Assembly (NCBI GenBank): GCA_965247895.1 | Contig: OZ252046.1 | Span: 1,975,155 to 2,039,154, forward strand | Source of the DNA: Dehalococcoidia bacterium | Lineage (GTDB): Bacteria; Chloroflexota; Dehalococcoidia; UBA2979 | Direction: 5' to 3' | Length of the DNA: 64,000 bases | Shown: positions 1 through 32,914 of the stretch, one piece after another | How the letters are laid out: each line of letters opens with the position of its first letter | Position numbering within the stretch: position 1 is the first letter of the stretch | Notes under the pieces: generated by a model | What the model was told of the DNA's origin: nothing | What the model saw: the letters and a program-made list of their open reading frames with translations, nothing else | Databases searched by the model: none | Made by a program: the position numbers and the translations under genes

Positions 1-1
1 G

Positions 2-910
2 CACACAGGACGAGACGCCGCTCGTGGCGCGCTCCGGGGCGAAGGTACTGCTGCCGACGGCGCGCAGCGTGCGGGGCGGCGCGCACGTCGGGCGCGGGAG
101 ATCCTGGGACAGTCCCGCTCCACGATCGGCCTGAGGCGCACGATCCTCGACGGCGGCATCCTGTTCGTCTCCACCGCGCAGGGCACGGCCGGGCGCGACG
201 TCGCCGCGCTCGTCGGCTCCTCGATCCTCAACCTCGTCGACGCCGTCATCCGCGAGCAGGGCGGGCTGCTGCCGGAGCAGCGCCGGGGCGCGCTGGTCGT
301 GGTCGACGAGATGCAGGCCATGCCGGGCGTCGACTACGAGGCGATGCTCTCGGAGCTGGGCAAGTTCGGGGCGAGCTTCGTGCTCGCCACGCAGAGCCTC
401 GCCAAGCTGTCCGACCTCTCGCCGACGATGCAGGACACGCTGCTCGCCAACGTCGGCTGCCTCGCCGTCTTCCAGGTGGCGGGCGCAGATGCCCGGCAGC
501 TCGTCTGGGAGTTGGGCAAGGAGCGCGTCACCGAGGAGGACATCGTCTCGCTGCCGGTGCACCACGCCTACGTGCGCGCCACGACGGGCGGCGAGCGCAT
601 GTCGACGTTCTCGATGGCGGTGCGCAAGCCCGAGGGCGGAAACCCGGACGCGGCTGACCGCATCCGCGCGGACGCCTCGGCCTACTTAATGCCGGCTGCC
701 GACCTCGCCGAGCGCGACACCGGCGCGCGACTGGCGGAGCGCTACCGCGAGAGCCTGGGCGAGCTGCGGAAGGACCGGAACGGCGCGCAGGCGGCGGAGG
801 GTCCGGACAAGGCTCCCGAGCAGCCGAAGAAGCGGAGGCAGCGCAGCAGGCGCGACCGCGGGCCCGGCGGGGACACGCCGGAGGCGCACGGGGATGAGCG
901 GGCCGGATGA
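2..910 (+). CDS. conjugative coupling-protein-like P-loop ATPase (TraD/TraG/VirD4 or HerA/FtsK-like), C-terminal part; 5' end lies outside the window
   Basis: Reading frame open from the first base of the window. Hydrophobic-DE Walker-B-like block (ALVVVDEMQAM) followed by FVLATQSLAKL, typical of conjugative T4CP/HerA-FtsK ATPases; basic Lys/Arg tail. Adjacent to a replication-relaxation gene. Confidence 0.5.
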   Translation, partial: HTGRDAARGALRGEGTAADGAQRAGRRARRAREILGQSRSTIGLRRTILDGGILFVSTAQGTAGRDVAALVGSSILNLVDAVIREQGGLLPEQRRGALVVVDEMQAMPGVDYEAMLSELGKFGASFVLATQSLAKLSDLSPTMQDTLLANVGCLAVFQVAGADARQLVWELGKERVTEEDIVSLPVHHAYVRATTGGERMSTFSMAVRKPEGGNPDAADRIRADASAYLMPAADLAERDTGARLAERYRESLGELRKDRNGAQAAEGPDKAPEQPKKRRQRSRRDRGPGGDTPEAHGDERAG

Positions 911-2460
911 GTCCGGCTGCGAGCACTCCGGAGCTACTGCGCCGGCTGGCGGCGATGCCCTTGCTCGACCGGCTGGAGCTGGTCGCCGTCTCCGGCTGGT
1001 CGCGGGGCGCGGTCTACGAGGGCGTCGGCCGACTCAAGCAGGCCGGGCTCGCCGCCTCCGTCCCGCACGCCATGGAGCTGATCGCGCCCACGCGGAGGTT
1101 CCACCTCACCGCCGCTGGCGTGCGTGTGCTCGCTCACGGCGAGAGCGAGGAGGAGTTGTTGCGGCAGCACCCCGTCTCGGCACAGTGGCAGCGCATCCTG
1201 TTGGAGCGCCTCGACACCGTGGCCGCGATCTACCGGCTCGCGTGCGCGGTCTCCGCGGTGGCCTGGCCGATCAGCTTCCGCTGGTACCGCGGCCTGCCGC
1301 TGAACGCCGCGATCACGCTCCCCGGCGGCCGCCGCGTCGGCGTCGTCCGCGTCGGCCGCTCAGCCGACCGCACGGGCCTCGCCAACCGGCTCTGGCGGTT
1401 GCGCGCAGGGTCGCTTCCCGGCGCGGCGCTGCTACTCCTCCCGGACGAGGTGCGGCTGCGCCACGCGCGCGGGCTGCTGGCCGGCTTCCCCGTACCCGCC
1501 GTTCTGGCTCTTGAGCGAGAGGCGACGCTCACTCCCGATGGCGCGATCTGGAGGCTGCCCTCGGTTAACGCCGCCATCTCCCTCAAGGCCGTCCTTGACC
1601 GGGCGGTCCCGCACGGCGTGCTGCCTGAGGAGCGCCCGCTCGCACGCCCGACGCCGCCCGCGGCCCCGCTCGCCGGTTGGGCGGGGTTTGATGTGCCCAA
1701 CTGTCTGTTGTCGGCGCTGCTGAGGCCCGCCGAGAAGCGCGCGCTCGATCTCCTCGCCGACTGGCCATGGCTCAGCCCGGAGCACCTGCAAGCCCTGCTC
1801 GGCGTCTCGCGCGCGCGGACCGCACAGATCACTTCCGCCCTCCGGGACCGCGGACTCGCGGCACGCGTGCCCGCGGCCAATGGCCGCCTCGTCCTCACCG
1901 GGCGCGGGCTGACGCTCATTGCCCGGCGCGACCGCACCTCCATCGGACTCGCGAAGAAGCGCTGGAGCGCCGCGCCGCTGGACGGCGGCGCCGCGGGCGG
2001 CTGGCGCGACGTCGCCGGGCGGCGCAGCCGCCAGCTGCTGCGCAACATCGAACACAGCGCCGCGGTGCACGGCTTCATCGCGGCACTCGCCGCGCAGTCG
2101 CGCGCCCTCGGGTGGGAGCTCGTCCAGCGCGACCCGCCGCACCGCGCGTCGCGCTACTTCCGCCGCGACGGCCGACTGCGCTCCGTCCTGCCCGACGCCT
2201 TCGCCGTCCTGCGCAGGGGGACGACGGCGTCGCCGTGCTTCGTCGAGTGGGAGCGGCGCGCGGTACGCCCGAGCACGATGGCGGCGAAGCTCGCGCCCTA
2301 CGTGCGTTACTACGCATCACCGCGGCCCACCGACGACCGCACGGAGGATTGTTGTGCGCCATCGCCAGCATCGAGGTCACGTCCGGCTCGGGCAGCGGGT
2401 TGCGGCTGGGCGGGACGATGTCGGCGATGCGCCCGTGCTCGGAGGCGGGCGTGCCGATGA
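907..2460 (+). CDS. replication-relaxation family protein (plasmid/ICE type); last ~40 codons (after ~2340) are Arg/Cys-rich read-through and probably not native
   Basis: 517-aa ORF overlapping the upstream gene by 4 bp (ATGA). C-terminal region PDAFAVLRR...FVEWERR...KLAPYVRYYASPRP resembles the Replic_Relax family. After TDDR the composition switches to the junk typical of reading antisense through another gene. Confidence 0.55.
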   Translation: MSPAASTPELLRRLAAMPLLDRLELVAVSGWSRGAVYEGVGRLKQAGLAASVPHAMELIAPTRRFHLTAAGVRVLAHGESEEELLRQHPVSAQWQRILLERLDTVAAIYRLACAVSAVAWPISFRWYRGLPLNAAITLPGGRRVGVVRVGRSADRTGLANRLWRLRAGSLPGAALLLLPDEVRLRHARGLLAGFPVPAVLALEREATLTPDGAIWRLPSVNAAISLKAVLDRAVPHGVLPEERPLARPTPPAAPLAGWAGFDVPNCLLSALLRPAEKRALDLLADWPWLSPEHLQALLGVSRARTAQITSALRDRGLAARVPAANGRLVLTGRGLTLIARRDRTSIGLAKKRWSAAPLDGGAAGGWRDVAGRRSRQLLRNIEHSAAVHGFIAALAAQSRALGWELVQRDPPHRASRYFRRDGRLRSVLPDAFAVLRRGTTASPCFVEWERRAVRPSTMAAKLAPYVRYYASPRPTDDRTEDCCAPSPASRSRPARAAGCGWAGRCRRCARARRRACR

Positions 2461-3052
2461 AGAAGTCGAGGCCGAGCGGGTCCACGATCTCCTCGCGCAC
2501 GAACTCGCCGGGCCGGCGGCCGCTCACGCGGCGGACGATCTCGCCGATGATCCAGCCGTAGGTCCACACGTGGTAGCCGTGGCGAGTGCCGGGCTCCCAC
2601 CACGGCTCGGCCTCGGCCAGCGCCGTGGTCATCGTCTGCCAGTCGTAGCAGGCCTCCTTCGGCAGCAGCCGCCGCGCGCCGACCACACCCGAGCGGTGCC
2701 CCAGCACGTGGCGCACGGTGACGCCTTCCTTGCCCGCCTGCGCGAACTCCGGCCAGTAGCTGGCCACGGGCGCCTCGATGTCCACGAGTCCGCGGTCGGC
2801 GAGCATGTGCAGGCCGAGCGAGAGCAGGCCCTTCCCGGTCGAGTAGGCGTTGACGATCGTGTCGCGCTCCCAGGCGCGAGTGCCCGCGGCGTCGGCGTGT
2901 CCCGCCCAGAGATCGACCACCGGCTCGCCATCGATGGTGACGGCGACGGCGGCGCCGATGTCGCCGCGCTCCGTGAAGTTCTGCTCGAACTCCTCGCGCA
3001 CCCCCGCGAAGCGAGGATCGCACTCGCCGCGGATCTCGACCTCTGACGTCAT
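2343..3052 (-). pseudogene. serine hydrolase (beta-lactamase-fold esterase/PBP family), 3'-truncated remnant (~236 N-terminal codons)
   Basis: ATG at 3052 (MTSEVEIRGE...). S-x-x-K active-site motif (STGK) ~70 aa from the start and coherent protein-like sequence down to ...AMAHNNPP at ~2343. Beyond that the frame becomes Arg-rich antisense of the replication-relaxation gene. No KTG/HxG third motif, and the length (~240 aa) is far short of the ~380-420 aa usual for the family. Confidence 0.5.
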
Positions 3053-3187
3053 GCGTCGCCTCCTTCGCGCCGGTACGCCGCCGCCGCGCTGGCGCAGCGT
3101 ACGACAGGCCCGAGGAGGGTGCAGGCCCCGGAGCGGGCGCGAGTACAATCGCCTGCGGGAAGATCCGAAGCCGGTACGGGGGCCCGC

Positions 3188-5296
3188 ATGAACGAAGAGC
3201 AGAGCGCGCCCCCTGAGACGCACTTTGACGCCGACCGCCCAATTGAACGTCGTGAGCAGGACCGCCTGGGCAGGCGGTCCTTTGCCGAGGCGATCGCGAA
3301 GCAGATCCTCGCCGTTCCCGCTGCACAGGGATTCACCATGGCGGTTGTGGGTGAGTGGGGAGCCGGCAAGACATCGGTACTCAACATGGTCGCCGAGACA
3401 GTCGCGGGCGACGACGGCGGCCCGGCCATCCTCCGCTTCAACCCGTGGCTCTTCAGTAGTGCGGACGACCTAGTGAGGCGGTTCTTCACTGAACTTGGCG
3501 CACAGCTCCATCAAAGACAACACCCGGGGCTGAAGGACGTGACGACGGCACTGTTCGAGTTCGCCGAATCTGCAGCACCACTGATCCCCATGCCCGGCGC
3601 GGTCCCGGCGGTGAAGCTGCTGAGTAAACTCACCAACCGCTCGACAAGACCACCGAGCCTACTTGAGACGCGTAGTCGACTCAGCCAAGCTCTCGCTAAG
3701 TCTGGTTCGAGGATCGTTGTCCTCATTGATGACATCGACCGGCTTGAGCGCCGCGAGATACGCGAAGTGATGCGATTGGTGCGCCTGACATCTGATTTGC
3801 CAAACCTTGTCTTCTTGCTCGCATTCGATAGGGCCCGTGTGGCGAGCAGCCTGAACTGGGACAAGGACGGGGACGACGGCCAACAGTACCTGGACAAGAT
3901 TGTTCAAGTGAGCCACGACGTCCCCGTGGCACGCAAGGCGACCCTGACCGACATGCTCATAGCCGGGCTCAATGAGCTTATCGAGGCACGCGATCTTGGG
4001 GACCCCGACCGGGAAGTGTGGGTGAGCGTCCTCTACGAAATGCTGAGGCCGCTCCTTGGTAACCCCCGGGACGTCAAGCGCTACCTGTACTCGCTGCCCG
4101 TGACCCTCGACGCTGTCGGGCACGAGGTGGCGCTGGCTGACCTGCTCGGGCTAGAAGCGGTTCGGGTCCTCAGACCGAAAGTGTTCGACGACTTGAGGGC
4201 ACACGCCGACTACCTCGTGCACTCGGAGTCCCGAGCGCAGCTCTTCATGACACAAGACGAATTCAAGCGGAAGGTTCGGGACGAGCTCACGGCAATGCTT
4301 GAGCGTGCTGCAGGTGACCGCGTGCTGTTGGAGTCCGTGCTCAGGACTCTGTTCCCGGTGACGCAAGAGTTCCTCTCCAGCACCAGCTACGGTCCCATGT
4401 CGGACGGATCTTGGCGAAGGCAGCGACGTGTCGCTTCCGGCGAAGTGTTACGCATCTACCTGCAGGCCGCGCTCGACGAGGTAGCACTTCAATCGAGTGA
4501 GGTTCAGGAGCTAGTAGACGCCCTCACTGACGAAGATAGGCTTTCCCAGCTGCTCGACTCCTTCGACGACCAGCGCTTCGAGGAGGCCCTCGAACGTCTC
4601 GGGGACTTCGAGTATGAGTTGCCTTCCGAGGCCCTGCCGGCAGCTGTACCCGTGCTCGTGAATAGGATGGGAGGGCTCAGTGAACGCTCTGCAGCGCCGT
4701 TCGAACTCTCACCGCGACGGAAGGCATACCGTGTCGTTCTGTTCATTCTTCGACGAGTCGCGGACAAAGCAGCCCTCGCGGGCTCCTTGCCCGCGGTGCT
4801 GGCGAAGATCGATTCCTTGTCGGGATGGCTGGAGGTGGTCGAATTGGTTGGCCACCGCGATCGAGTTGGACCGCAACTCGTCGACATCGCGGACGCGACG
4901 AAGCTCGAACATCAGCTGGTCGAACGACTGAGATCAGCATCGGCGCGGGAACTTGCGGGCGAGTGGAGCCTCGCACGTTTGTCAATGCGGGCGCTGGCTT
5001 GGCTTGAGGGTCAGGACAAAGACCGGCTCGCCGGGCGACTGCGCGAACACCTCAGTGAAGACGGATTCGTTCTCACTCTGCTCCACACGAGCGTCGGCTA
5101 CGCATACTCCGGCAGCGATGTTCGTAAGCTTCTTTCTTGGGACGCCCTCGTGGAGGCGTTCGGTGATGAACTCCCCGATGCGGTCGACAGACTCACCCGC
5201 TCTCAAATCTACGAGGACGCATCGGACGACGATCGCGACACCATCGATCTGGCTCGGAAGTACGCGTCGGGCGAGCGCCCAGACGAATGGGAGTAG
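3188..5296 (+). CDS. KAP-family P-loop NTPase (large predicted NTPase, ~700 aa)
   Basis: Start MNEEQ at 3188 inside the longer ORF 3119-5296. Walker A (VVGEWGAGKTSVLNMV) and Walker B-like (IVVLIDDIDRL) motifs with KAP-type spacing, plus a long alpha-helical C-terminal region. Local GC is visibly lower than in the flanks (many A/T-ending codons between 3480 and 5300). Confidence 0.7.
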   Translation: MNEEQSAPPETHFDADRPIERREQDRLGRRSFAEAIAKQILAVPAAQGFTMAVVGEWGAGKTSVLNMVAETVAGDDGGPAILRFNPWLFSSADDLVRRFFTELGAQLHQRQHPGLKDVTTALFEFAESAAPLIPMPGAVPAVKLLSKLTNRSTRPPSLLETRSRLSQALAKSGSRIVVLIDDIDRLERREIREVMRLVRLTSDLPNLVFLLAFDRARVASSLNWDKDGDDGQQYLDKIVQVSHDVPVARKATLTDMLIAGLNELIEARDLGDPDREVWVSVLYEMLRPLLGNPRDVKRYLYSLPVTLDAVGHEVALADLLGLEAVRVLRPKVFDDLRAHADYLVHSESRAQLFMTQDEFKRKVRDELTAMLERAAGDRVLLESVLRTLFPVTQEFLSSTSYGPMSDGSWRRQRRVASGEVLRIYLQAALDEVALQSSEVQELVDALTDEDRLSQLLDSFDDQRFEEALERLGDFEYELPSEALPAAVPVLVNRMGGLSERSAAPFELSPRRKAYRVVLFILRRVADKAALAGSLPAVLAKIDSLSGWLEVVELVGHRDRVGPQLVDIADATKLEHQLVERLRSASARELAGEWSLARLSMRALAWLEGQDKDRLAGRLREHLSEDGFVLTLLHTSVGYAYSGSDVRKLLSWDALVEAFGDELPDAVDRLTRSQIYEDASDDDRDTIDLARKYASGERPDEWE

Positions 5297-5411
5297 CCAC
5301 ACCGTCCCGCCGAGGACGCCCGTTCGCAACGCTGCACGGCATTCGCTAGAGTTCCAGCGGCCAGAAGCGCCGACCCGCCGCGCCGGCGACTCCCGCGCGG
5401 AAGGACCTCCG

Positions 5412-6143
5412 ATGCACGAGACGCTGAGCATCGAGCACGAGGGCGGGGTCGCGACGCTGACCGTCACCCGGCCGCCCGTGAACGCGCTCAGCCTCGTCAT
5501 GCTCGAGTCGATGGCCGAGGAGCTGCACCGCCTCGGCGACGATCCCGAGGTGAGCGCGATCGTCTGGCGCAGCGGCGTGCCCGGCATCTTCAGCGGCGGC
5601 TTCGACCTCAACGATCCGCGCAGCGCCAGCGCGCAGCCGCTGCACTTCCCGCCCGGCGACCACCTGGCGCGCGTGCGCAATGCGCAGACCGCGCTGCTCG
5701 ACGTGCCCGTGCCGATCATCGTCGCCGTCAACGGCGCGGCGGTCGGCCTCGGGATGCTGATGCCCGCGCTCTGCGACATCGTGATCGCGGGCCGGAGCGC
5801 GCGCTTCGGGCTGCCGGAGATCCAGATCAACTCGATCGGCGGGGCGGGCCACGCGCGCCGCATCCTGCCGGAGCCGGTGCTGCGCTACCTGATGCTGACC
5901 GGCCGCCGCGTCACACCCGAGTACCTCCAGCAGTGCGGCGCGATCGCGCTCGTCGTCGAGGACGACGACCTCGACAGCGAGGCGCAGGCGATCGCCGCCG
6001 AAATCGCCAGCTACGATCCCGTCGTCGTGCGCAACTCGAAAGTCTCGCTGGAGGCGCTGCGCACGATCGACGACGTGGCGCTCGCCTACTCGCTCGAGCA
6101 CAAGTGGGGCGCGGCGCTCCGCCTGTCGCGCCAGCAGGGTTAG
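5412..6143 (+). CDS. enoyl-CoA hydratase/isomerase (crotonase) family protein
   Basis: MHETLSIEHEGGVATLTVTRPPVNAL..., oxyanion-hole GGFDL and VAVNGAAVGLG motifs; ATG at 5412 within ORF 4953-6143. Confidence 0.7.
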   Translation: MHETLSIEHEGGVATLTVTRPPVNALSLVMLESMAEELHRLGDDPEVSAIVWRSGVPGIFSGGFDLNDPRSASAQPLHFPPGDHLARVRNAQTALLDVPVPIIVAVNGAAVGLGMLMPALCDIVIAGRSARFGLPEIQINSIGGAGHARRILPEPVLRYLMLTGRRVTPEYLQQCGAIALVVEDDDLDSEAQAIAAEIASYDPVVVRNSKVSLEALRTIDDVALAYSLEHKWGAALRLSRQQG

Positions 6144-6224: not shown

Positions 6225-6782
6225 ATGACGACCACAGAGGCGAAGCTGCTGACGGCCTCCGACCTGCTGCGGCTCTGCAGCCGCGGCGTGCGCGGCGAAC
6301 TGATCCGGGGGGTGCTCTGCGAGACCATGCCGACGGGACACGAGCACGGCAAGATCGTCATGAGGCTGGGCGCCGCGCTGTTCAACTTCGTGGACCCCAG
6401 GAAGCTGGGAACGGTGGTCGCCTCGGACTCAGGCGTCTGGCTCGAGCGTGATCCCGACACCGTGCGCGAGCCGGACGTGGCATTCACCTCGGTGGAGAAG
6501 ATCCCGCTCGATGCGCGGATCGTGGGCTACGCCGAGGCCGTGCCCGACCTGGTGGTCGAGGTGCGGTCCCCCGGTGACAGCCGCCGCGAGGTCCACGACA
6601 AGGCGCGGATGTGGCTGAGCCACGACGTACGCCTCGCGTGGGTCGTGCATCCGGACACGCGCACGGTAGACGTGCATCGGCCGGATCAGCCCGTCGCCAC
6701 CCTCGGCGCGAACGACAGCCTCGACGGCGCTGACGTGCTCCCCGGCTTCGCCCACTCCGTGAGCGCCATCTTCGAGGCGTAG
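6225..6782 (+). CDS. Uma2-family (DUF820) restriction-endonuclease-fold protein
   Basis: N-terminus MTTTEAKLLTASDLLRL...GELIRGVL matches the Uma2 pattern; PD-(D/E)xK-like elements (EPDVAF, PDLVVEVRSP). Start may instead be 6180. Confidence 0.6.
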   Translation: MTTTEAKLLTASDLLRLCSRGVRGELIRGVLCETMPTGHEHGKIVMRLGAALFNFVDPRKLGTVVASDSGVWLERDPDTVREPDVAFTSVEKIPLDARIVGYAEAVPDLVVEVRSPGDSRREVHDKARMWLSHDVRLAWVVHPDTRTVDVHRPDQPVATLGANDSLDGADVLPGFAHSVSAIFEA

Positions 6783-9311: not shown

Positions 9312-9854
9312 ATGACCAAGGTCGAGGGCGAGTACGACATCGAGGCCGTGCGCGCGGAGTGGATCGGCAGGAAGGCGCCGGTCTACCACGGCCGCTACCC
9401 GGTCGAGTACGACCCGATCCGCCGCTACTGCCACATGGTGGAGGACGACAACCCGCTGTTCCTCGATCCGGAGTACGCGGCGACGACGAAGTGGGGCGGC
9501 GTGATCGTGCCGCCCGTGATGACCGACTACTTCGCCGGCAGCGGCGCCTGGCCCGAGGAAGACGAGCCGGTGATCCAGCTCCAGGTGCCGACGCGCGGCG
9601 ACCGCACCATCAACCTCAACGTGAGCTGGGAGTTCATCCAACCCGCCCGCATCGGCGACCGCCTCTCGCGGCAGACGGAGATCGAGGACATCTACCAGAA
9701 GCCGACCCGGCTCGACCCGAAGTCGATCTGGATCGCGACGAAGACGACCATCTCCAACCAGCACGGCGAGGTCCTCGCGATCGGCAGGAACACGATGGTC
9801 GCCCATCGCCGCCCCGAAGAGTTCGCCGGCGAGCTGGACGGGAGCGGCGCATGA
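9312..9854 (+). CDS. MaoC-N-terminal-like hotdog-fold dehydratase subunit (ChsH1/HadA-like)
   Basis: 180 aa; FAS1-like/MaoC-N hotdog pattern. The stop overlaps the next start (ATGA), suggesting translational coupling with a second hotdog subunit. Confidence 0.65.
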   Translation: MTKVEGEYDIEAVRAEWIGRKAPVYHGRYPVEYDPIRRYCHMVEDDNPLFLDPEYAATTKWGGVIVPPVMTDYFAGSGAWPEEDEPVIQLQVPTRGDRTINLNVSWEFIQPARIGDRLSRQTEIEDIYQKPTRLDPKSIWIATKTTISNQHGEVLAIGRNTMVAHRRPEEFAGELDGSGA

Positions 9855-13930: not shown

Positions 13931-14596
13931 TCAGATCAGCGCGACTCGGTAGGCCGTCAGGATCTCCTCGACGTAGAGCCGGGCGGCGCCCGCATCGAGG
14001 TTCTGGTCGCCAGGCGGCACCGGGAGGCGGTCCATCACTTCCTCGAAGCAACCGTCCGGGCAGCGATCAGAGAAGAACATGTAGGCGAACCCCTCGGGCT
14101 CCCGATGCGAGCGCCACGTCATGCCACGGGCCCAAGGCGCCCACGCCCGAATCGCCGAGGCCCAGCGCCGCGTCATCGCGTATTCGGCGGCGGATGAGTG
14201 TGTCAACGACGTGTCCTGACCCACCGCCGCCAGGTCCCGGCCGGACCGAAGGCCCACCAGCTCCAGGTCCAGCGTTGTGCGCAGCCAGCTGATTCGCAGT
14301 CCGGAAAGGCGAGCGCGCGGGAGCAAGCGTGCCCCGCGGTCATCGATCTGCAGATCGCGGAGCAGCGCTTCGGAGACTGCGGTCGCATCGTCCGCAGCGG
14401 CGTACAGGAAAGCGTACTCATCGTCCGGCGTCGAGTCGAACCGTCCGCCGAGGAGATCGCTTCGAGCCACGGTCGGGTTGAACCCGGTCACGTCAAAGTC
14501 AGCGCTGTGGATGCGCGTCAGCCTCGTCCCCGCGGGCAACGGGAAGAGCCGCGGCGCGCCCTCATAGCTTGTCGGGGGCGGCTGGTTTGGCGACAA
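13931..14596 (-). CDS. RES-domain toxin (MbcT/ParT-like NAD+-targeting toxin family)
   Basis: LGGRFDSTPDDEYAFLYAAADDATAVSEALLRDL and ...WRSHREPEGFAYMFFSDR blocks match the conserved R/E/S-bearing motifs of RES domains. Immediately downstream of an Xre/DUF2384-type gene. Start is TTG at 14596 per the ORF track and is uncertain. Confidence 0.7.
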   Translation of the reverse strand: MSPNQPPPTSYEGAPRLFPLPAGTRLTRIHSADFDVTGFNPTVARSDLLGGRFDSTPDDEYAFLYAAADDATAVSEALLRDLQIDDRGARLLPRARLSGLRISWLRTTLDLELVGLRSGRDLAAVGQDTSLTHSSAAEYAMTRRWASAIRAWAPWARGMTWRSHREPEGFAYMFFSDRCPDGCFEEVMDRLPVPPGDQNLDAGAARLYVEEILTAYRVALI

Positions 14597-14602
14597 GCCC
14601 GC

Positions 14603-15322
14603 CTACCCGATCGGCTCGATGACCGCCTCGGCCACCGTGGCGAGGTCGTCCGCTCTGTCGGTCCCGACAAGGTCGACGGGCCGGGCGCCGAGTCGTGCGT
14701 GGCGGGAGACCCACCAGGACGCGACGCCCCACGGGTCACTCGCAGCCTCCAGCCGTTCGTTGACCGCGCGCACTTCCGTGAATACATCGCGCCGCCGCGG
14801 GTCGAACTGGAAGGCGGGGTACAGATAGCCGCGGGCGGCGGGCAATCCAAGCAGCCACGAGCGCTCGCGGTAGCGCCGGACCTTCTCGCGATTCGTGCGG
14901 TTCGCCCCGAGCGCGAGTGCAGCGTCTCGCGGCTCAAGCATCGGCTCACGCCAGATCGTGCGGATTGCCTCTCCCTGGACCTGGGCCTGCAACAACACCG
15001 TTTGCTCGACCTCGTCGAGCACGTGCCGTGGCTCTCCTCCAAGCTCCCGGCTGAGGTCGCTCCGCAGCGTGAGCAGCGTCAGCCAACTCCGCAGCCGGGA
15101 CTCGTCCCCGTCCAGTGCGTGGTGCCGTGCCGCGAGCGACGCCGCGGCATCGAGCAGTTCCGATTCCCGTGCCGGCCACTCGGCTGCGAGATGCGCCAGC
15201 ATGTTCCGCGCTGTGCTCGCCCGCCGCGAGGCGAGGGTCAGGAGCGCCTGCTCGAGATCCTCGTCGCTGAGTTCCCGGTCCAGGTCCCGGATACGACTGT
15301 CGAGTTCGGGCCGGATCGCCAT
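14603..15322 (-). CDS. RES-partner antitoxin, Xre/MbcA/ParS type (C-terminal DUF2384 toxin-binding domain)
   Basis: C-terminal ...PWGVASWWVSRHARLGARPVDLVG is the hallmark DUF2384 motif; 6-bp gap to the RES gene on the same strand. Confidence 0.65.
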   Translation of the reverse strand: MAIRPELDSRIRDLDRELSDEDLEQALLTLASRRASTARNMLAHLAAEWPARESELLDAAASLAARHHALDGDESRLRSWLTLLTLRSDLSRELGGEPRHVLDEVEQTVLLQAQVQGEAIRTIWREPMLEPRDAALALGANRTNREKVRRYRERSWLLGLPAARGYLYPAFQFDPRRRDVFTEVRAVNERLEAASDPWGVASWWVSRHARLGARPVDLVGTDRADDLATVAEAVIEPIG

Positions 15323-15446: not shown

Positions 15447-16814
15447 TTACCCGCTCCGCTTGGCCAGCGCGCGGGCGTCGAGGCGGCTCGCCGGATCGGC
15501 GCGCCCATCGGTGTCCAAACTCATGCCCTCCGCCCGGAGCACGTCGACCGGGTCGCGGCTGTCGGAGGGATCGCCCCAATAGAAGCCCTCCGAGACCCGT
15601 CCGTCGGCGTTCAAGACACGGTAGCCGATCCGGCACGCATCCTCGGGGCAGCGGGCGATATGTCCGGCGACCGCCTGCGCCGAGCTGTCGATCGCTTCCG
15701 CGAGATCGCCGTAGGTGGTCCACTCGCCGGGACGAACGTGCCCCAGCAGCCCGTGGAGGAGCGACCAGTCCCGGCCCTCCACGGCAGCGCGCGAGCCCGC
15801 CAGGGCCTTGAGCGTCTCACCGCTCGCCGTCCTCCACGCCCTCGGACCGGATATGACCGTTGGCCGCTCGCCGGTCACCCGCTCCACGATCTCCTTCGCC
15901 AGTCCCGTCGGACTCCAGGCGTCGCCATCGAGTTCCCAGATCAACGGCGCGCGCGGATCGTTGCGCCAGGTTGCGCGAGCGCGTCGCGGTTCTGCGACCA
16001 CCCACTCGCCGACCTGTTCGCGCAAAGCCGACGACAGGCGGAGGGCGCGCACCTCAAGCTCCAACTGCGCGCCGTCCTCGATCACGCCCTCGGCAACCAG
16101 TGTCGCGACGGCGGTCCGTTCGCGGCGCGTGCGTACACGCTCGTCGGCTGCTCGAAGCTCCACCTGCCGCGGGGAGACCGTGAAGTCCTCGACGTCCTGC
16201 ACCGGCCACGTCTGTGAGACCGTCAACACGACGTCATGCTCCGTGCGATATGCGTTGAACTCGATCAGCGCGATGTCAACGCCCATCTCGGTAAGCCACA
16301 CCGCGCTCGCGGTGACTTGCGGCGGGAAGCTCGCCGCCATCAACGCTATGCGCGGCTGGCGGAGCTGGTCAGGATCGAGCTCACCGCCGGCGTGCTCCTC
16401 CATCCGGGCGAGGGCGTCCTCGGCCGACACTGCTTCGCCGCTGACCCGCGAGAGGTAGGCCGCGTGGGCCTCGGCCAGCGTCTGCGGGGTGAAGCGGCTG
16501 GCGAACGCCGCATACTTGATCGCCTGCATCTCGACGGTGTCTGGAGCAGGGCCACGCTTCAGCTCGGCGACCACGAGACGTCCGTCGTCGTCCAGTCCCA
16601 GCAGATCGAGGCGATCAGCCGCACGCCCGTCGCGCGAGCGCCAAGCGCCAAACTCGAAGGTCACGATGTAGACGCCGTCGCCGAGGATCTCCGGGTTCTC
16701 GCGCACCCACTCCTGCAGATCGGACCGCTCGCGGAGTCCCGCGTCCGCGAGGCTGATCGCTTGCGCGCGCCGGGCGATGCCCGGCTCCACCGTGAAGACC
16801 AGTTCACCCGCCAC
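15447..16814 (-). CDS. hypothetical fusion protein: N-terminal PD-(D/E)xK nuclease-like (NucS/DUF91-like) domain plus C-terminal MGMT/ATL-like alkylguanine-binding DNA-binding domain
   Basis: N-terminus: D-x(n)-LDDDGRLVVAELKRG gives a D...E-x-K arrangement with preceding DLQEWVRENPE, as in NucS-C/DUF91. C-terminus: WTTYGDLAEAI...AQAVAGHIARCPEDACRIGYRVLNADGRVS resembles the MGMT/Ogt DNA-binding domain (YG.LA...RAVG.A...NP..P.HRV.), but the usual PCHRV Cys is not obvious. Both domain assignments are by eye, without a profile search. Confidence 0.45.
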   Translation of the reverse strand: MAGELVFTVEPGIARRAQAISLADAGLRERSDLQEWVRENPEILGDGVYIVTFEFGAWRSRDGRAADRLDLLGLDDDGRLVVAELKRGPAPDTVEMQAIKYAAFASRFTPQTLAEAHAAYLSRVSGEAVSAEDALARMEEHAGGELDPDQLRQPRIALMAASFPPQVTASAVWLTEMGVDIALIEFNAYRTEHDVVLTVSQTWPVQDVEDFTVSPRQVELRAADERVRTRRERTAVATLVAEGVIEDGAQLELEVRALRLSSALREQVGEWVVAEPRRARATWRNDPRAPLIWELDGDAWSPTGLAKEIVERVTGERPTVISGPRAWRTASGETLKALAGSRAAVEGRDWSLLHGLLGHVRPGEWTTYGDLAEAIDSSAQAVAGHIARCPEDACRIGYRVLNADGRVSEGFYWGDPSDSRDPVDVLRAEGMSLDTDGRADPASRLDARALAKRSG

Positions 16815-16882
16815 CAGACAGTCCCTCCCGCGCCCGGCGCAGACTACGGAACGCCCGAGGGCATGTCACTGCCAGCGGAAGC

Positions 16883-29032: not shown

Positions 29033-30919
29033 ATGACCGCTTCCGATACAGCAGCTTCGTACGAAGACACGTCAGTGGCAGCGGAGAGCGGCGGCCTCAT
29101 GCTGCGCCAGCGCGCAAGCCGGCGCGCCGTGATGCGCGGGGCGCTGCTCGGAGGCGCCGGCCTTGCCGCGGCAGCGCTCATCGGCTGCGGCGACGGCGAC
29201 GATGACGACGACGGCGCGGCCCCGGCAGCAACGGCGGCCCCCACGACTGCCCCGACGGCTGCCCCGACGGCGACGGCCGCTCCGACGGAGCCGCCGCTCT
29301 CCGAGGCGGCGCAGGGCGTGCGCGCACTGAACGCACAGGCCGAGAAGGACGGCGCGCCGTTCCCCTACGACTTCGAGGAGCCGGACACGCCCCCGAAGGC
29401 CGGCGGCATCCTCAAGATGGCCTACCGCTTCGACATCGGCAGTTGGGACCAGAGCAAGGTCGGCGTCGTCGGCACGACGCTCTACAACCAGGCCGCGTAC
29501 AACCGGCTGGTCGGGTTCAAGCACGGCCCCGGCGTCTCGAAGTTCCTCAACGAAATCGAGCCCGAACTGGCGCAGACCTGGGAGCTCTCGGACGACGGCC
29601 TGACCTACACCTTCAACATCGTCCCCGGGATCAAGTATCCGAACGTCGCGCCGGTGAACGGGCGCGACTTCACCTCGGCGGACATCAAGTTCGTCTACGA
29701 GCGACACGGCCAGGAGGAGACCAGCGTCCATAAGCAGTACTTCTCGCTGGTCTCGGCGGTCGAGACGCCGAATGACGACACGCTGGTGGTACGCCTCAGC
29801 CAGCCGAGCCCTGACTTCCTCGTCGGGCTCGCCCTGCGCTGGAACGTGATCTACCCGCGCGAGCCGGTGGACAACGGCACGATCGACACCCAGCTCCCGG
29901 TCGGCACCGGCCCACTGATCACCACGGAGGCCGTGCCCAGCAGCCACGTCACGATGGAGTCCAACCCCGACTACTGGGAGGGCAAGCCGCTGCTCGACGG
30001 CCTCGATGTCCGCATCATGCCGGACGAGAACGCACAACTGGCGGCATTCCGCGCCGGCCAGGTGGACCTCGCCGCCATGCCGTCCGACCTCGCGACGCTG
30101 CACAGCGTCCACGAGGAGACCAACAACCAGCAGGTGAACGACCCGATCCTGATGGCCACGAACTCCGTCGGCTTCCAGTTGAAGAACCCCAAGTTCTCCG
30201 ACGTTCGCGTACGGCGGGCGCTCGGCTTGGCGCTGCGGCGGGATCAGCTCCTGGACATCCTCTACGACGGCTCCGGGCTCTTCGTGCCCGTCACCGCCTG
30301 GCCGTTCGTGCTGGACGCGATCCCCGACAGCAAGGAGTTCGGGGCGTACTGGCACTACGACGCGGACGAGGCGAAGAAGCTGCTCTCGGCCGCCGGCGCC
30401 GAGGACCTCGAGTTCCCGCTGCTCGCCAGCGACCGGCTGCTGCGCGGCATCGGCACCCGCGAGATGGAGATCCTCCAGCAGCAGTGGGCGGAAATCGGCG
30501 TCAAGATGGAGCTGCAGGTGGTCGACTACTCCGAGTACAACCGGCAGTGGTTCGGAAACAACTTCGAGGAGGTCGCCTCCGGCACCGCGACCGTCGCGCC
30601 GACGGCGGACGGGTTCTTCTTCGACCAGGTCCACCCCTCGGCCGTCACGAACCGCTGGGGGATCGACGACGCGGAGGTCACGGATTGGGCGGAGCGGCAG
30701 AAGGTGGAGCTCGACCCGGACGCGCGCAGGGAACTGCACGTGCGGATCTTCGACAAGGTGCTGGATCAGGTCTACCGCATCGAGCGCACCGCACCGTTCC
30801 CCAACAACACGCAGCAGAACTGGGTGCGGAACTTCCGGTTCAGCTACCCGTTCATCAGCCACCACTGGGTGTACGAGTGGGGCGACCAGTTCCACACCGG
30901 CTGGCTCGACAGGGCCTAG
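29033..30919 (+). CDS. ABC transporter substrate-binding protein, family 5 (peptide/nickel/opine type), Tat/lipoprotein-type signal
   Basis: RRAVMRGALLGGAGLAAAALIGCG signal plus Ala/Pro/Thr linker; SBP_bac_5-like core. The true start may be 29099. Confidence 0.75.
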   Translation: MTASDTAASYEDTSVAAESGGLMLRQRASRRAVMRGALLGGAGLAAAALIGCGDGDDDDDGAAPAATAAPTTAPTAAPTATAAPTEPPLSEAAQGVRALNAQAEKDGAPFPYDFEEPDTPPKAGGILKMAYRFDIGSWDQSKVGVVGTTLYNQAAYNRLVGFKHGPGVSKFLNEIEPELAQTWELSDDGLTYTFNIVPGIKYPNVAPVNGRDFTSADIKFVYERHGQEETSVHKQYFSLVSAVETPNDDTLVVRLSQPSPDFLVGLALRWNVIYPREPVDNGTIDTQLPVGTGPLITTEAVPSSHVTMESNPDYWEGKPLLDGLDVRIMPDENAQLAAFRAGQVDLAAMPSDLATLHSVHEETNNQQVNDPILMATNSVGFQLKNPKFSDVRVRRALGLALRRDQLLDILYDGSGLFVPVTAWPFVLDAIPDSKEFGAYWHYDADEAKKLLSAAGAEDLEFPLLASDRLLRGIGTREMEILQQQWAEIGVKMELQVVDYSEYNRQWFGNNFEEVASGTATVAPTADGFFFDQVHPSAVTNRWGIDDAEVTDWAERQKVELDPDARRELHVRIFDKVLDQVYRIERTAPFPNNTQQNWVRNFRFSYPFISHHWVYEWGDQFHTGWLDRA

Positions 30920-31017
30920 CTGCCGTGGCGATACTGCCGCTCACGAAGCGACGGTGGGGTGCGCCTCCGCTCTGAGCGCGGACGGCGCCTCCCGCTGACC
31001 AAGGCTACCGGGATTGG

Positions 31018-31986
31018 GTGATGGGTCAATACGTCCTCCGGCGAGTCCTCGCCTCGATCCCCACGCTCGTTCTTTTCTCACTGCTCATCGCAGGGCTGAT
31101 CCGGCTCGTCCCCGGCGACGTGGTGGAGGCGCGGCTGGCCGGCGGCGGTGGTATGGACGGCGGCTCGCTCAACGAGGACACGATCCAGGCCCTGCGCGAG
31201 GATCTCGGCCTCGATCGATCGTTCCCGGAGCAGTACATCGATTGGGTGACGCACGCGATCCGTGGCGACCTCGGGGTCTCGATGTGGACCTACCAGGGGG
31301 TCACGACCGCAATCTTCCAGCGCGCCAGGCTCTCCGTTCAGCTCGCGTTGATGGCGATGGGCATCGCACTACTGATCGCCATCCCGCTCGGCGTGCTCTC
31401 CGCGATCAAGCAGGACAGCTGGCTGGACTACGTGGCCAGGCTGTTCGCGGTCGCGGGGCTCTCCATCCCCGACTTCTGGATCGCCACCATGGTCCTGCTC
31501 GCGCTCTCGCTCTACATCGGCTGGCTGCCGGAGTTCGGGTACTTCCCGCCCTGGGAGGAGCCCTGGAAGAACTTCCAGGCGCTGATCTTCCCGGCGCTGA
31601 TCATCGGCTACCGCTACTCGGCGATCAGCGCACGGATGACGCGCTCCGCCATGCTCGAGGTGCTTCGCCAGGACTACGTGCGGACCGCACGCGCGAAGGG
31701 CCTCACGGACCGCGTCGTGATCACCAGGCATGCGCTGCGCAACGCCCTGATCCCCGTGGTCACGATCATGGCCAGCCAGCTCAGCCATCTCATCGGCGGG
31801 CTCGTGGTGGTCGAGACGATCTTCTCCCTGCCGGGGATGGGCCGGCTCGTCCTCGATTCGGTGATCTCGCGGGATTACCCGGTCGTGCAGGGCGCGGTCA
31901 TGATGATTGCTGTGGTGTTCGTCCTCGCGAACCTGCTCGTGGACCTCTCGTACGCCGTAATCGACCCGCGGATCCGCTACTCCTAG
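31018..31986 (+). CDS. ABC transporter permease (DppB/OppB-like)
   Basis: Six TM helices; EAA-loop region (RTARAKGLTDRVVITRHALRNAL). Confidence 0.8.
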   Translation: MMGQYVLRRVLASIPTLVLFSLLIAGLIRLVPGDVVEARLAGGGGMDGGSLNEDTIQALREDLGLDRSFPEQYIDWVTHAIRGDLGVSMWTYQGVTTAIFQRARLSVQLALMAMGIALLIAIPLGVLSAIKQDSWLDYVARLFAVAGLSIPDFWIATMVLLALSLYIGWLPEFGYFPPWEEPWKNFQALIFPALIIGYRYSAISARMTRSAMLEVLRQDYVRTARAKGLTDRVVITRHALRNALIPVVTIMASQLSHLIGGLVVVETIFSLPGMGRLVLDSVISRDYPVVQGAVMMIAVVFVLANLLVDLSYAVIDPRIRYS

Positions 31987-32014
31987 GCACGATGGCGGGG
32001 CGGAGGATGAGCGC

Positions 32015-32914
32015 ATGAGCGAAGCCACGGCCGCCCCGTCCGCTCTTGATGGACTCCGCCGCGAGCCGCGATCGCCGCTGTCCGATGCGGCGCGGCGGCT
32101 GGTCCGCACGCCGGTCGGCGCCGTCTCGCTCGCGGCGATCCTGCTGCTCATGATCGCCGCGGCGCTCTCCCCCGTGGCCACGCCGCACGACCCGTTCCTG
32201 ATCGCCGACAAGCCATTCCTCAGACCAAGCTTCACGCACTGGATGGGAACCGACTCGATCGGCCGCGACCTCTTCAGCCGAGTGCTGATCGGGGCGCGCA
32301 TCTCGCTCTACGTCGGCGTGGTCGCTGTCGTGGCGGGGACGCTCTCGGGCAGCTTCGTGGGCCTGATCAGCGGGTTCGCCGGCGGGAAGCTGGACCTCGT
32401 CGTGCAGCGCGTGGTGGATTCGATGGTCTCGATTCCGGCACTGGTGCTCGCGCTCGTGATCGTCTCCGTGTTCGGGCCGGGGACCACCAACGGACTGCTG
32501 GCGATCGCGCTCGTGATCGCTCCCAACAACTCGCGCGTGATCCGGGGCGCCGTCCTCTCGGTGAAAGAGAACGTCTACATTGAGGCGGCGGCCGCGACGG
32601 GCGCCAGTCCCTGGCGCGTGATGCTGCGCCACGTGCTCCCGAACGTGACCGCCCCGATCCTCATCCTCATCTCGGCCTCGCTCGGGGCGGCGATCCTGAT
32701 CGAGGCGGCGCTCTCCTTCTTCTCACTGGGAACGCAGCCGCCCGATCCATCGTGGGGCTACATGCTGAGCAAGGACGGGCGAGCCTTCATGGAGCGCGCC
32801 CCCTGGCTGGCGATCTTCCCCGGGCTGGCGATCAGCATCACCGTGCTCGCCTTTAACCTGCTCGGCGACGTGATCCGCGACGTACTCGACCCGCGGCTGC
32901 GGGGCACTCGCTAA
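32015..32914 (+). CDS. ABC transporter permease (DppC/OppC-like)
   Basis: N-terminal TM helix plus BPD_transp_1 core; NWMGTDSIGRD motif. Confidence 0.8.
   Translation: MSEATAAPSALDGLRREPRSPLSDAARRLVRTPVGAVSLAAILLLMIAAALSPVATPHDPFLIADKPFLRPSFTHWMGTDSIGRDLFSRVLIGARISLYVGVVAVVAGTLSGSFVGLISGFAGGKLDLVVQRVVDSMVSIPALVLALVIVSVFGPGTTNGLLAIALVIAPNNSRVIRGAVLSVKENVYIEAAAATGASPWRVMLRHVLPNVTAPILILISASLGAAILIEAALSFFSLGTQPPDPSWGYMLSKDGRAFMERAPWLAIFPGLAISITVLAFNLLGDVIRDVLDPRLRGTR

Follow-up and report, generated by a model that had tools for sequence, protein, structure and literature searches.

A PifA-like P-loop NTPase gene in a variable chromosomal spacer of an uncultured Dehalococcoidia bacterium: a candidate single-gene anti-phage defence

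PifA of the F plasmid was among the first abortive-infection proteins to be described. It senses gp1.2 and/or the capsid protein gp10 of phage T7, and the abortive infection that follows involves membrane lesions, depolarisation and nucleotide leakage (PMC8594841; PMC13001434). The protein has no transmembrane helices (PMC13001434), and in the F plasmid its gene is co-transcribed with pifC, which encodes a fertility-inhibition factor (PMC5696584). Here we analyse a gene for a PifA-like protein with a KAP-family P-loop NTPase domain, located in a 64,000-nucleotide stretch of contig OZ252046.1 from an uncultured Dehalococcoidia bacterium. We call this whole stretch the window, number all coordinates from its first nucleotide, and propose, with a probability of roughly 0.7, that the gene is a stand-alone anti-phage defence gene.

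The window protein and F PifA have much in common. Both have an N-terminal KAP P-loop NTPase domain and lack transmembrane helices, both belong to the mobile or accessory part of the genome, and they are similar in size (702 aa and 741 aa, respectively). However, F pifA is plasmid-borne and sits in the pif operon with the pifC repressor gene, whereas the window gene is a chromosomal single-gene cassette, without pifC or any second gene, in a genome of ~72% GC.

Several other defence systems can be compared with this locus. Single-gene KAP NTPases fused to uncharacterised C-terminal regions protect Enterococcus against phages, and this protection depends on an intact Walker B as well as on the C-terminal region (PMC13552941). 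EF_KAP and three KAP proteins from gut metagenomes resemble the window protein in that a KAP NTPase domain is followed by ~300-360 aa without known domain or structural match, all encoded by a single gene, and in both groups some relatives are found in mobile-element or recombinase contexts. This likeness is one of architecture. EF_KAP has two transmembrane helices, one N-terminal and one inside the KAP domain (PMC13552941), whereas the window protein has none. QatA shares the KAP-type P-loop, but its match to the window protein is partial, with ~60-70 residues around the Walker A and B motifs (PADLOC E 1e-14; NCBIfam E 9e-17), and its 60.9 bits compare with an equivalog cut-off of 600; moreover, Qat requires QatB, QatC and QatD, whereas the cassette has one gene. 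RdrA of RADAR, a ring-forming defence ATPase core, is the best match among solved structures at 11-13% identity. RADAR pairs it with the RdrB adenosine deaminase, whereas the cassette has no partner, and the genes beside it, for a hydrolase and an enoyl-CoA hydratase (ECH), are also found at empty sites. Finally, Tmn of the YobI family defends as a single P-loop NTPase that responds to a phage protein, and in concept it is the nearest membrane-associated NTPase defence with a studied mechanism (PMC13001434). Tmn belongs to a different NTPase family, with two transmembrane helices inside its P-loop domain, and causes plasmolysis without depolarisation (PMC13001434); no match to a Tmn/YobI profile was seen in the PADLOC scan of the window protein.

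The gene occupies an intact open reading frame (ORF) at 3119..5296 on the + strand. An initial annotation, made from the letters of the window alone, had recognised in this frame a KAP NTPase of ~700 aa with both Walker motifs, which is correct (Pfam E 1e-43), but the start of the frame has to be revised. Translation from the GTG at 3119, the earliest start the frame allows, would give 725 aa, and translation from the ATG at 3188 gives 702 aa and a stop. The true start is most likely ATG 3188, judging from sequence comparison, because its product is 100% identical to a database protein (P0001), because the N-termini of 36 homologs line up at its Met, and because a G-rich stretch lies directly ahead of it. 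The gene and its parts are as follows.

3188..5296, + strand: coding sequence of the PifA-like KAP-family P-loop NTPase (identity to P0001; PADLOC PifA match)
3272..4105, + strand: KAP-family P-loop NTPase domain, aa 29-306 (PF07693, E 1e-43; BLASTP and hhalign to F PifA)
3350..3376, + strand: Walker A motif GEWGAGKTS, aa 55-63 (sequence; invariant residues in homologs)
3716..3745, + strand: Walker B motif VVLIDDIDRL, aa 177-186 (sequence; invariant residues in homologs)
4220..5293, + strand: C-terminal all-alpha domain with one beta-hairpin, aa 345-702, presumed to be the sensor and/or effector part (AlphaFold2; PADLOC profile)

Both the profile score and the motifs place the protein in the KAP family. 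The Pfam KAP_NTPase profile (PF07693) aligns over positions 1-289 of 293 with 150.1 bits (E 1e-43; the gathering cut-off is 20 bits), and the two motifs follow the GxxGxGKT/S pattern of Walker A and the hhhhDDxDR pattern of Walker B. In all 36 of 36 homologs, which are 46-81% identical, the residues G55, W57, G58, G60, K61, T62, S63, D181, D182, D184 and R185 are invariant. The transmembrane helices of the family are the exception. Typical KAP proteins are described with four of them outside the P-loop domain (PMC13001434), and no transmembrane segment was found in the 702-aa protein (maximum 19-aa Kyte-Doolittle hydropathy 1.34). PifA shares this exception (PMC13001434), and membership is not excluded by it. 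The window protein contains nothing recognisable as a nuclease, protease, TIR or pore-forming domain.

Beyond the KAP domain, the protein matches the PADLOC model for PifA (PDLC02361) with 278.6 bits (E 3.1e-83), and the alignment is full-length and colinear, from 34-699 in the protein (725-aa numbering) to 3-701 of 720 in the profile. On the same model F-type PifA itself reaches 963 bits, and the homologs P0005 and P0027 reach 245-261 bits. The two halves of the protein, scanned separately, both match in register (N-terminal E 4.8e-69, C-terminal E 9.3e-11), with the C-terminal 358 aa alone covering profile positions 363-701 of 720 at 39 bits. Other PADLOC models (QatA, PDC-S20) give only short matches around the P-loop. 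For direct comparison we took an authentic pifC-pifA pair of an IncF plasmid, in which pifC lies directly upstream of pifA. BLASTP aligned the window protein to this PifA at 25% identity over aa 16-334 (E 3e-28), and hhalign of the profile against the F PifA sequence gave a probability of 99.7% for the whole protein and 99.8% for the N-terminal halves. Very probably, then, the window protein belongs to the PifA family as a distant relative that matches over its full length; for the C-terminal half the homology is seen by profile only. The initial annotation had counted it among the KAP NTPases, which it called poorly characterised; the protein is no uncharacterised orphan of that group, as PADLOC would already label the gene PifA, which is a known family.

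The predicted structure adds a picture of the two halves. A full-length AlphaFold2 model from a 36-sequence alignment (mean confidence, pLDDT, 82; predicted TM-score, pTM, 0.62) has a five-stranded P-loop core in which a helical insert separates the two Walker motifs, and then a long all-alpha C-terminal region with one beta-hairpin. A loop of the insert, aa 134-153, is disordered in the model (pLDDT < 50), and the C-terminal domain modelled alone reaches a pLDDT of 85 and a pTM of 0.73. With Foldseek against the Protein Data Bank (PDB), the best match of the full-length model is RdrA (E 1.3e-5), followed by ORC/Cdc6 and CED-4/Apaf-1. No sequence-related PDB chain was found for the window protein, and the C-terminal fold has no significant PDB neighbour, its matches being alpha-solenoid noise (best E 0.012). 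The modelled fold therefore appears to say little more than that there is an oligomerising ATPase core of the AAA+/STAND-like kind.

Relatives of the gene are numerous and widely scattered. With a limit of E <= 1e-3, an exhaustive HMMER search returned 17,991 cluster representatives, of which 3,794 remain at E <= 1e-30 (clusters made at 50% identity). Among the 150 representatives listed, most are full-length and colinear, ~700 aa long and 31-58% identical to the window protein. The named carrier genomes include Chloroflexota, Actinomycetota, Pseudomonadota, Bacillota, Nitrospirota, Planctomycetota and methanogenic archaea, and a genome-collection search with homolog alignment placed the nearest named relatives in Chloroflexota metagenome-assembled genomes. 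Some family members are longer: P0083, P0086 and P0103 (47-50% identical, ~900 aa) exceed the rest by ~200 aa and carry an extra PF09997 domain, and P0118, P0182 and P0189 have N-terminal extensions of ~190-220 aa. A phage origin of the gene was considered and rejected, with no match in 50,697 phage records and only 8 distant matches (19-31% identity) in IMG/VR; the family is all but absent from phage genomes.

The genomic surroundings of these relatives differ from one to the next. Homologs at 45-63% identity lie in unrelated neighbourhoods, one among hypothetical genes and one among housekeeping genes. A 63%-identical homolog (locus L082, 1-18112) sits in an island of mobile or defence type, together with genes for a large serine recombinase, a pair of C5 DNA methylases of which one is fused to Vsr, an SLFN_AlbA_2 protein and a Replic_Relax protein that is 31% identical to the one in the window. 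Genes of defence or mobility (type I, II and IIG methylases, mad2, PDC-S05, PDC-S23, BrxL, RhuM, Fic and IS200) occur here and there near homologs, interspersed with ordinary metabolic genes. A survey of 39 homologs covered 127 flanking ORFs and found no partner family shared among them (at most 4 of 127). The AT content of the PifA-like gene exceeds that of its flanks, by 3-21 percentage points, in 23 of 24 loci, which come from many phyla; the exception (L018) is from a host with 35% GC.

At the window locus this bias is pronounced. In 500-bp segments the GC content is 0.59-0.62 across 3251-5250, compared with 0.71-0.76 on either side (it climbs back to 0.72-0.73 past the gene), and for the insert delimited below (3110-5312) it is 0.6205, compared with 0.721 to the left and 0.725 to the right. 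The lowest-GC segment of 2,203 bp in all 64 kb starts at 3141 (0.618), ~4 standard deviations under the mean of 0.701 +/- 0.020, and the next-lowest has 0.662. The GC content at third codon positions (GC3) is 0.71 in the PifA-like gene, compared with 0.84-0.98 in neighbouring genes. The second-lowest GC stretch of the window, at 29033-32914 on the + strand (0.66), is an ordinary ABC peptide-transporter operon (SBP_bac_5 and two permeases) and not an island.

The borders of the insert could be drawn with the help of four sister loci from closely related uncultured genomes, whose flanks are 93-97% identical to the window. These loci were retrieved via the sister allele P0002 and via a 180-aa dehydratase-domain (FAS1_DH_region) protein encoded at window positions 9312-9854. 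Together with the window they give the following states of the spacer between the hydrolase and ECH genes.

Window locus: hydrolase truncated by a conjugative element; PifA-like gene in the spacer
L001: hydrolase intact; PifA-like gene in the spacer, 81% aa identity
L086: hydrolase intact; unrelated cargo of ~1.4 kb in the spacer, with genes for an 81-aa DUF2335 protein and a 74-aa protein
L087: hydrolase shorter (264 aa); spacer empty, with ~140 bp separating the hydrolase gene from the ECH gene
L088: hydrolase cut by the contig end; spacer empty

The spacer behaves as an insertion hot spot, occupied by the PifA-like gene twice, empty twice and filled with other cargo once. That other cargo lies at 4626-6056 of L086, corresponding to window 3074-5368, with both of its small proteins encoded on the minus strand. 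In L088, window position 3109 joins 5313 directly, and L087 lacks the same stretch. Because these empty-site sisters delimit it, the cassette comprises 3110-5312 and one gene.

3110..5312, + strand: inserted single-gene cassette of 2,203 bp, with 78 bp upstream, the PifA-like coding sequence and 16 bp downstream (empty sites in L087 and L088; GC content)
3110..3116, no strand: direct repeat CCGAGGA (7 bp), left copy, at the edge of the cassette (sequence)
5310..5316, no strand: right copy of CCGAGGA, straddling the junction 5312/5313 (sequence)
3144..3149, + strand: possible -10 box TACAAT of a putative own promoter, 39 bp upstream of the ATG (sequence; weak)

The cassette ends have no terminal inverted repeats and no direct repeat longer than the 7 bp of CCGAGGA, no integrase is encoded inside the cassette, and no tRNA gene lies within 20 kb of it. 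A consensus scan of the cassette detected no full sigma-70 promoter and no convincing terminator. The two haplotypes with the cassette, those of the window and of L001, share a stretch of ~19 bp, TCGCGCCGGTACGCCGCCG, at 3074-3092, a short way upstream of where the hydrolase gene begins; L086 and L087 lack it.

These results establish the cassette as an accessory single-gene insert, most likely a horizontally acquired and self-contained one, and they bear out most of what had been read from the window alone. The AT-richer patch and codon usage are confirmed by the figures above, and a separate acquisition is supported by the confinement of the GC drop to the gene, by its presence in some sisters and absence from others, and by the lack of conserved synteny in distant genomes. 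The gene keeps its position only in the sister L001 and is missing from L087 and L088, and its description as standing alone, without partner genes, agrees with the single-gene insert that the empty sites delimit. The initial annotation had also named the lack of a KAP profile match, a uniform GC content and conserved synteny across many genomes as grounds for giving up its proposal; all three were looked for, and none was found.

The two alleles of the hot spot differ in a segmental way. Between the window and L001 the flanking proteins are 95-99% identical, whereas the PifA-like proteins are 81% identical. Nucleotide identity is 95-99% over 3093-3392 and 3793-4092, compared with 53-83% over 3393-3792 and 72-76% over 4093-4292. 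Likewise, the synonymous divergence (dS) is 0.91 in aa 66-200 and in aa 301-370, as against 0.14-0.16 in adjacent segments and 0.04-0.14 in flanking genes. The two tracts are as follows.

3383..3787, + strand: recombinant or hypervariable tract 1, aa 66-200, which is the helical insert separating the two Walker motifs (dS 0.91; incongruent relationships)
4088..4297, + strand: recombinant tract 2, aa 301-370, at the junction of the NTPase and C-terminal domains (dS 0.91; segment-wise neighbours)

In aa 66-200 the L001 allele is nearest to P0061 and P0112 (0.77-0.78) and the window allele to P0003 (0.67), the two alleles being only 0.59 identical to each other. In aa 301-370 the window allele is nearest to P0112 (0.89), and not to the sister allele P0002 (0.71). 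Since such elevated dS does not come from positive selection, the tracts would be imported sequence, from recombination between diverged alleles, and the comparison indicates that both alleles are recombination mosaics. Furthermore, the ratio of nonsynonymous to synonymous divergence (dN/dS) between the two is 0.32 for the whole gene and falls to 0.05-0.14 in the segments that bear the motifs, and the gene is therefore maintained by purifying selection. A further idea, which we hold only as a speculation, is that the two tracts are exchangeable specificity cassettes, that proteins of the PifA family read their trigger via the insert of the NTPase domain, and that segmental gene conversion diversifies the alleles that circulate in a population. 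In at least some KAP proteins, such as EF_KAP, this insert is the place of a transmembrane helix within the NTPase domain (PMC13552941).

To either side of the cassette are genes that also occur without it.

1..2340, + strand: right end of a conjugative element, with a TraG/TrwB-type coupling-protein ORF that enters from outside the window and ends at 910, and a Replic_Relax protein from 907 (Pfam; sister comparison)
2342..3052, - strand: serine hydrolase of the beta-lactamase family, truncated so that aa 1-237 of 380 remain, and transcribed away from the cassette (Pfam Beta-lactamase, E 2e-53, over positions 1-217 of the 329 in the profile)
5412..6143, + strand: ECH, first gene of a conserved CoA-metabolism cluster (Pfam ECH_1, E 1e-33; beside the empty site in L087 and L088)

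The truncated, divergent hydrolase of the initial annotation is thus real, running from 3052 to 2342. Its start at 3052 is preceded by a GGAGG ribosome-binding site and its product shares 98.7% identity with aa 1-237 of the protein that the intact gene of L001 encodes; the missing 3′ part was not found in the 64-kb window. Homology to all four sister loci ends at 2339/2340, and the conjugative element is not present in L001 or L086. The mobile-element junction next to the gene, also part of the initial annotation, therefore exists at ~2340, but its closeness is coincidental: since L001 has the cassette without the element, the two are independent insertions.

On the right, the cluster starts 116 bp past the stop codon of the PifA-like gene and encodes the ECH, a Uma2 protein, a family-III CoA-transferase, a dehydratase and acyl-CoA dehydrogenases. 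Co-transcription of the cassette with this cluster, or a functional link between them, was considered and ruled out, the cluster being intact beside the empty sites. The Uma2-family protein (putative restriction endonuclease fold; 6225-6782, + strand) is matched by the PADLOC candidate PDC-S03 (E 6e-16) and is present in all four sister loci. A 455-aa protein at 15447-16814 on the - strand is matched by the PADLOC candidate PDC-S11 (E 3e-47) and has a C-terminal MGMT-type DNA_binding_1 domain; its region has only ~76% identity with L086, and across 15675-16823 no homology to L087 was detected. A RES-domain toxin gene at 13931-14596 and, beside it, a 239-aa gene without Pfam match at 14603-15322 (together 13931-15322, - strand) are likely a RES-type toxin-antitoxin pair; in L086 their place is taken by a Fic protein, and in L088 an additional DDE transposase lies close by.

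A defence role for the PifA-like gene is what we infer from homology and population genetics together, and the suggestion of the initial annotation, a candidate single-gene defence or abortive-infection factor, gains support from the full-length PADLOC match to PifA. The abortive version in particular, with membrane lesions, is at best a tentative proposal and the less likely side of the question. The protein, soluble or peripherally associated with the membrane, would idle in an off state controlled by NTP. A phage protein would be recognised by variable helical surfaces, those of the all-alpha C-terminal domain and/or of the insert between Walker A and Walker B, and binding or hydrolysis of NTP would then drive a conformational or oligomeric switch, the nearest folds being RdrA, ORC/Cdc6 and CED-4/Apaf-1. 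The activated complex might halt phage multiplication, probably at the level of the membrane or of energy supply, F PifA offering a route through permeabilisation and nucleotide leakage to abortive infection.

Several observations count against this proposal or parts of it. We know of no phage of this uncultured host. The low GC content and the presence/absence pattern indicate an accessory gene, not specifically an immune one, and recognisable defence genes are near some homologs only, with many homologs among housekeeping genes. The link to PifA is weakest in the C-terminal half, for which the profile comparison with the C-terminal half of F PifA gave an hhalign probability of 0.5% and an hmmsearch E of 0.018, so that its homology comes from the single 39-bit profile match mentioned above. 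No PifC homolog was found when PifC was compared with the window by tblastn (best E 1.2). The structural matches to RdrA, ORC/Cdc6 and CED-4/Apaf-1 have low TM-scores of 0.2-0.3 (0.26-0.30 for RdrA). Even in the case of F PifA, it has been doubted in the literature that phage exclusion is the primary role, as the range of targets is very narrow (PMC8594841; PMC13552941). As to the abortive version, EF_KAP, the one tested KAP defence protein that was examined at both low and high multiplicity of infection, protects equally at a multiplicity of 1 and of 10, and is reported not to be abortive (PMC13552941).

This last finding leads to the possibility that the window protein is a defence protein of the PifA/KAP kind that acts directly, blocking a step of phage replication without killing the cell, which we consider unlikely though worth keeping in mind. 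EF_KAP would be its model, with its dependence on Walker B and on the C-terminal region, and it agrees with a C-terminal domain that has neither a toxic-effector signature nor a transmembrane helix. However, the protein lacks the two transmembrane helices of EF_KAP, and its specific profile match is PifA, known for membrane leakage and abortive infection (PMC13001434).

The doubts about F PifA could also point away from defence altogether, to an accessory KAP NTPase that regulates membrane-associated complexes in an NTP-dependent way or takes part in conflicts between mobile elements, for example in the exclusion of conjugative DNA. The KAP family was first proposed as regulators of membrane-associated signalling complexes, and it is the narrow phage range of PifA that led authors to suggest another primary role for it (PMC8594841; PMC13552941). 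The co-transcription of pifA with the fertility-inhibition gene pifC in F (PMC5696584) would fit, as would the homolog that rides an element with a Replic_Relax protein. We nevertheless find such a role improbable, as mosaic alleles, spread across phyla, AT bias and presence/absence at a hot spot are the pattern expected of immune genes, single-gene KAP fusions were anti-phage when tested (PMC13552941), and the locus has neither a conserved partner nor a regulated operon.

That the gene is a decaying, non-functional remnant of an old transfer, its low GC reflecting incomplete amelioration, is very improbable. The atypical composition and the absence of a canonical promoter or terminator from the scan would agree with decay, but the frame of 702 codons is intact in both alleles, the dN/dS values are those of a constrained gene, the catalytic motifs are all conserved, the models reach pLDDT values of 82-85, and full-length colinear homologs occur in more than 150 clusters. 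Least probable is that the gene is cargo of the conjugative element and arrived with it. The end of that element is only ~770 bp away, and elsewhere a related element encoding a Replic_Relax protein carries the 63% homolog. However, L001, whose hydrolase is intact and which lacks the element, has the cassette at exactly this position, and this refutes the reading at the locus. In addition, element and cassette are separated by 711 bp of native hydrolase sequence with 95-99% identity to the sisters, and in the alignments to the empty sites the cassette has borders of its own, at 3110 and 5312.

The reading of the gene as a stand-alone defence gene extends a known family and changes no concept. 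Full-length PifA-like proteins form a very large family that spans many phyla and reaches uncultured high-GC bacteria, and here the gene is a minimal mobile unit of ~2.2 kb. No structure of any PifA relative has been solved. The five haplotypes at one spacer make the cassette well delimited, and its mosaic alleles provide two natural variants that differ mainly in two tracts, which suits them to a study of specificity. If those tracts are indeed specificity cassettes, they would be the first handle on how the PifA family senses phages, and their exchange would resemble the cassette shuffling of other immune receptors.

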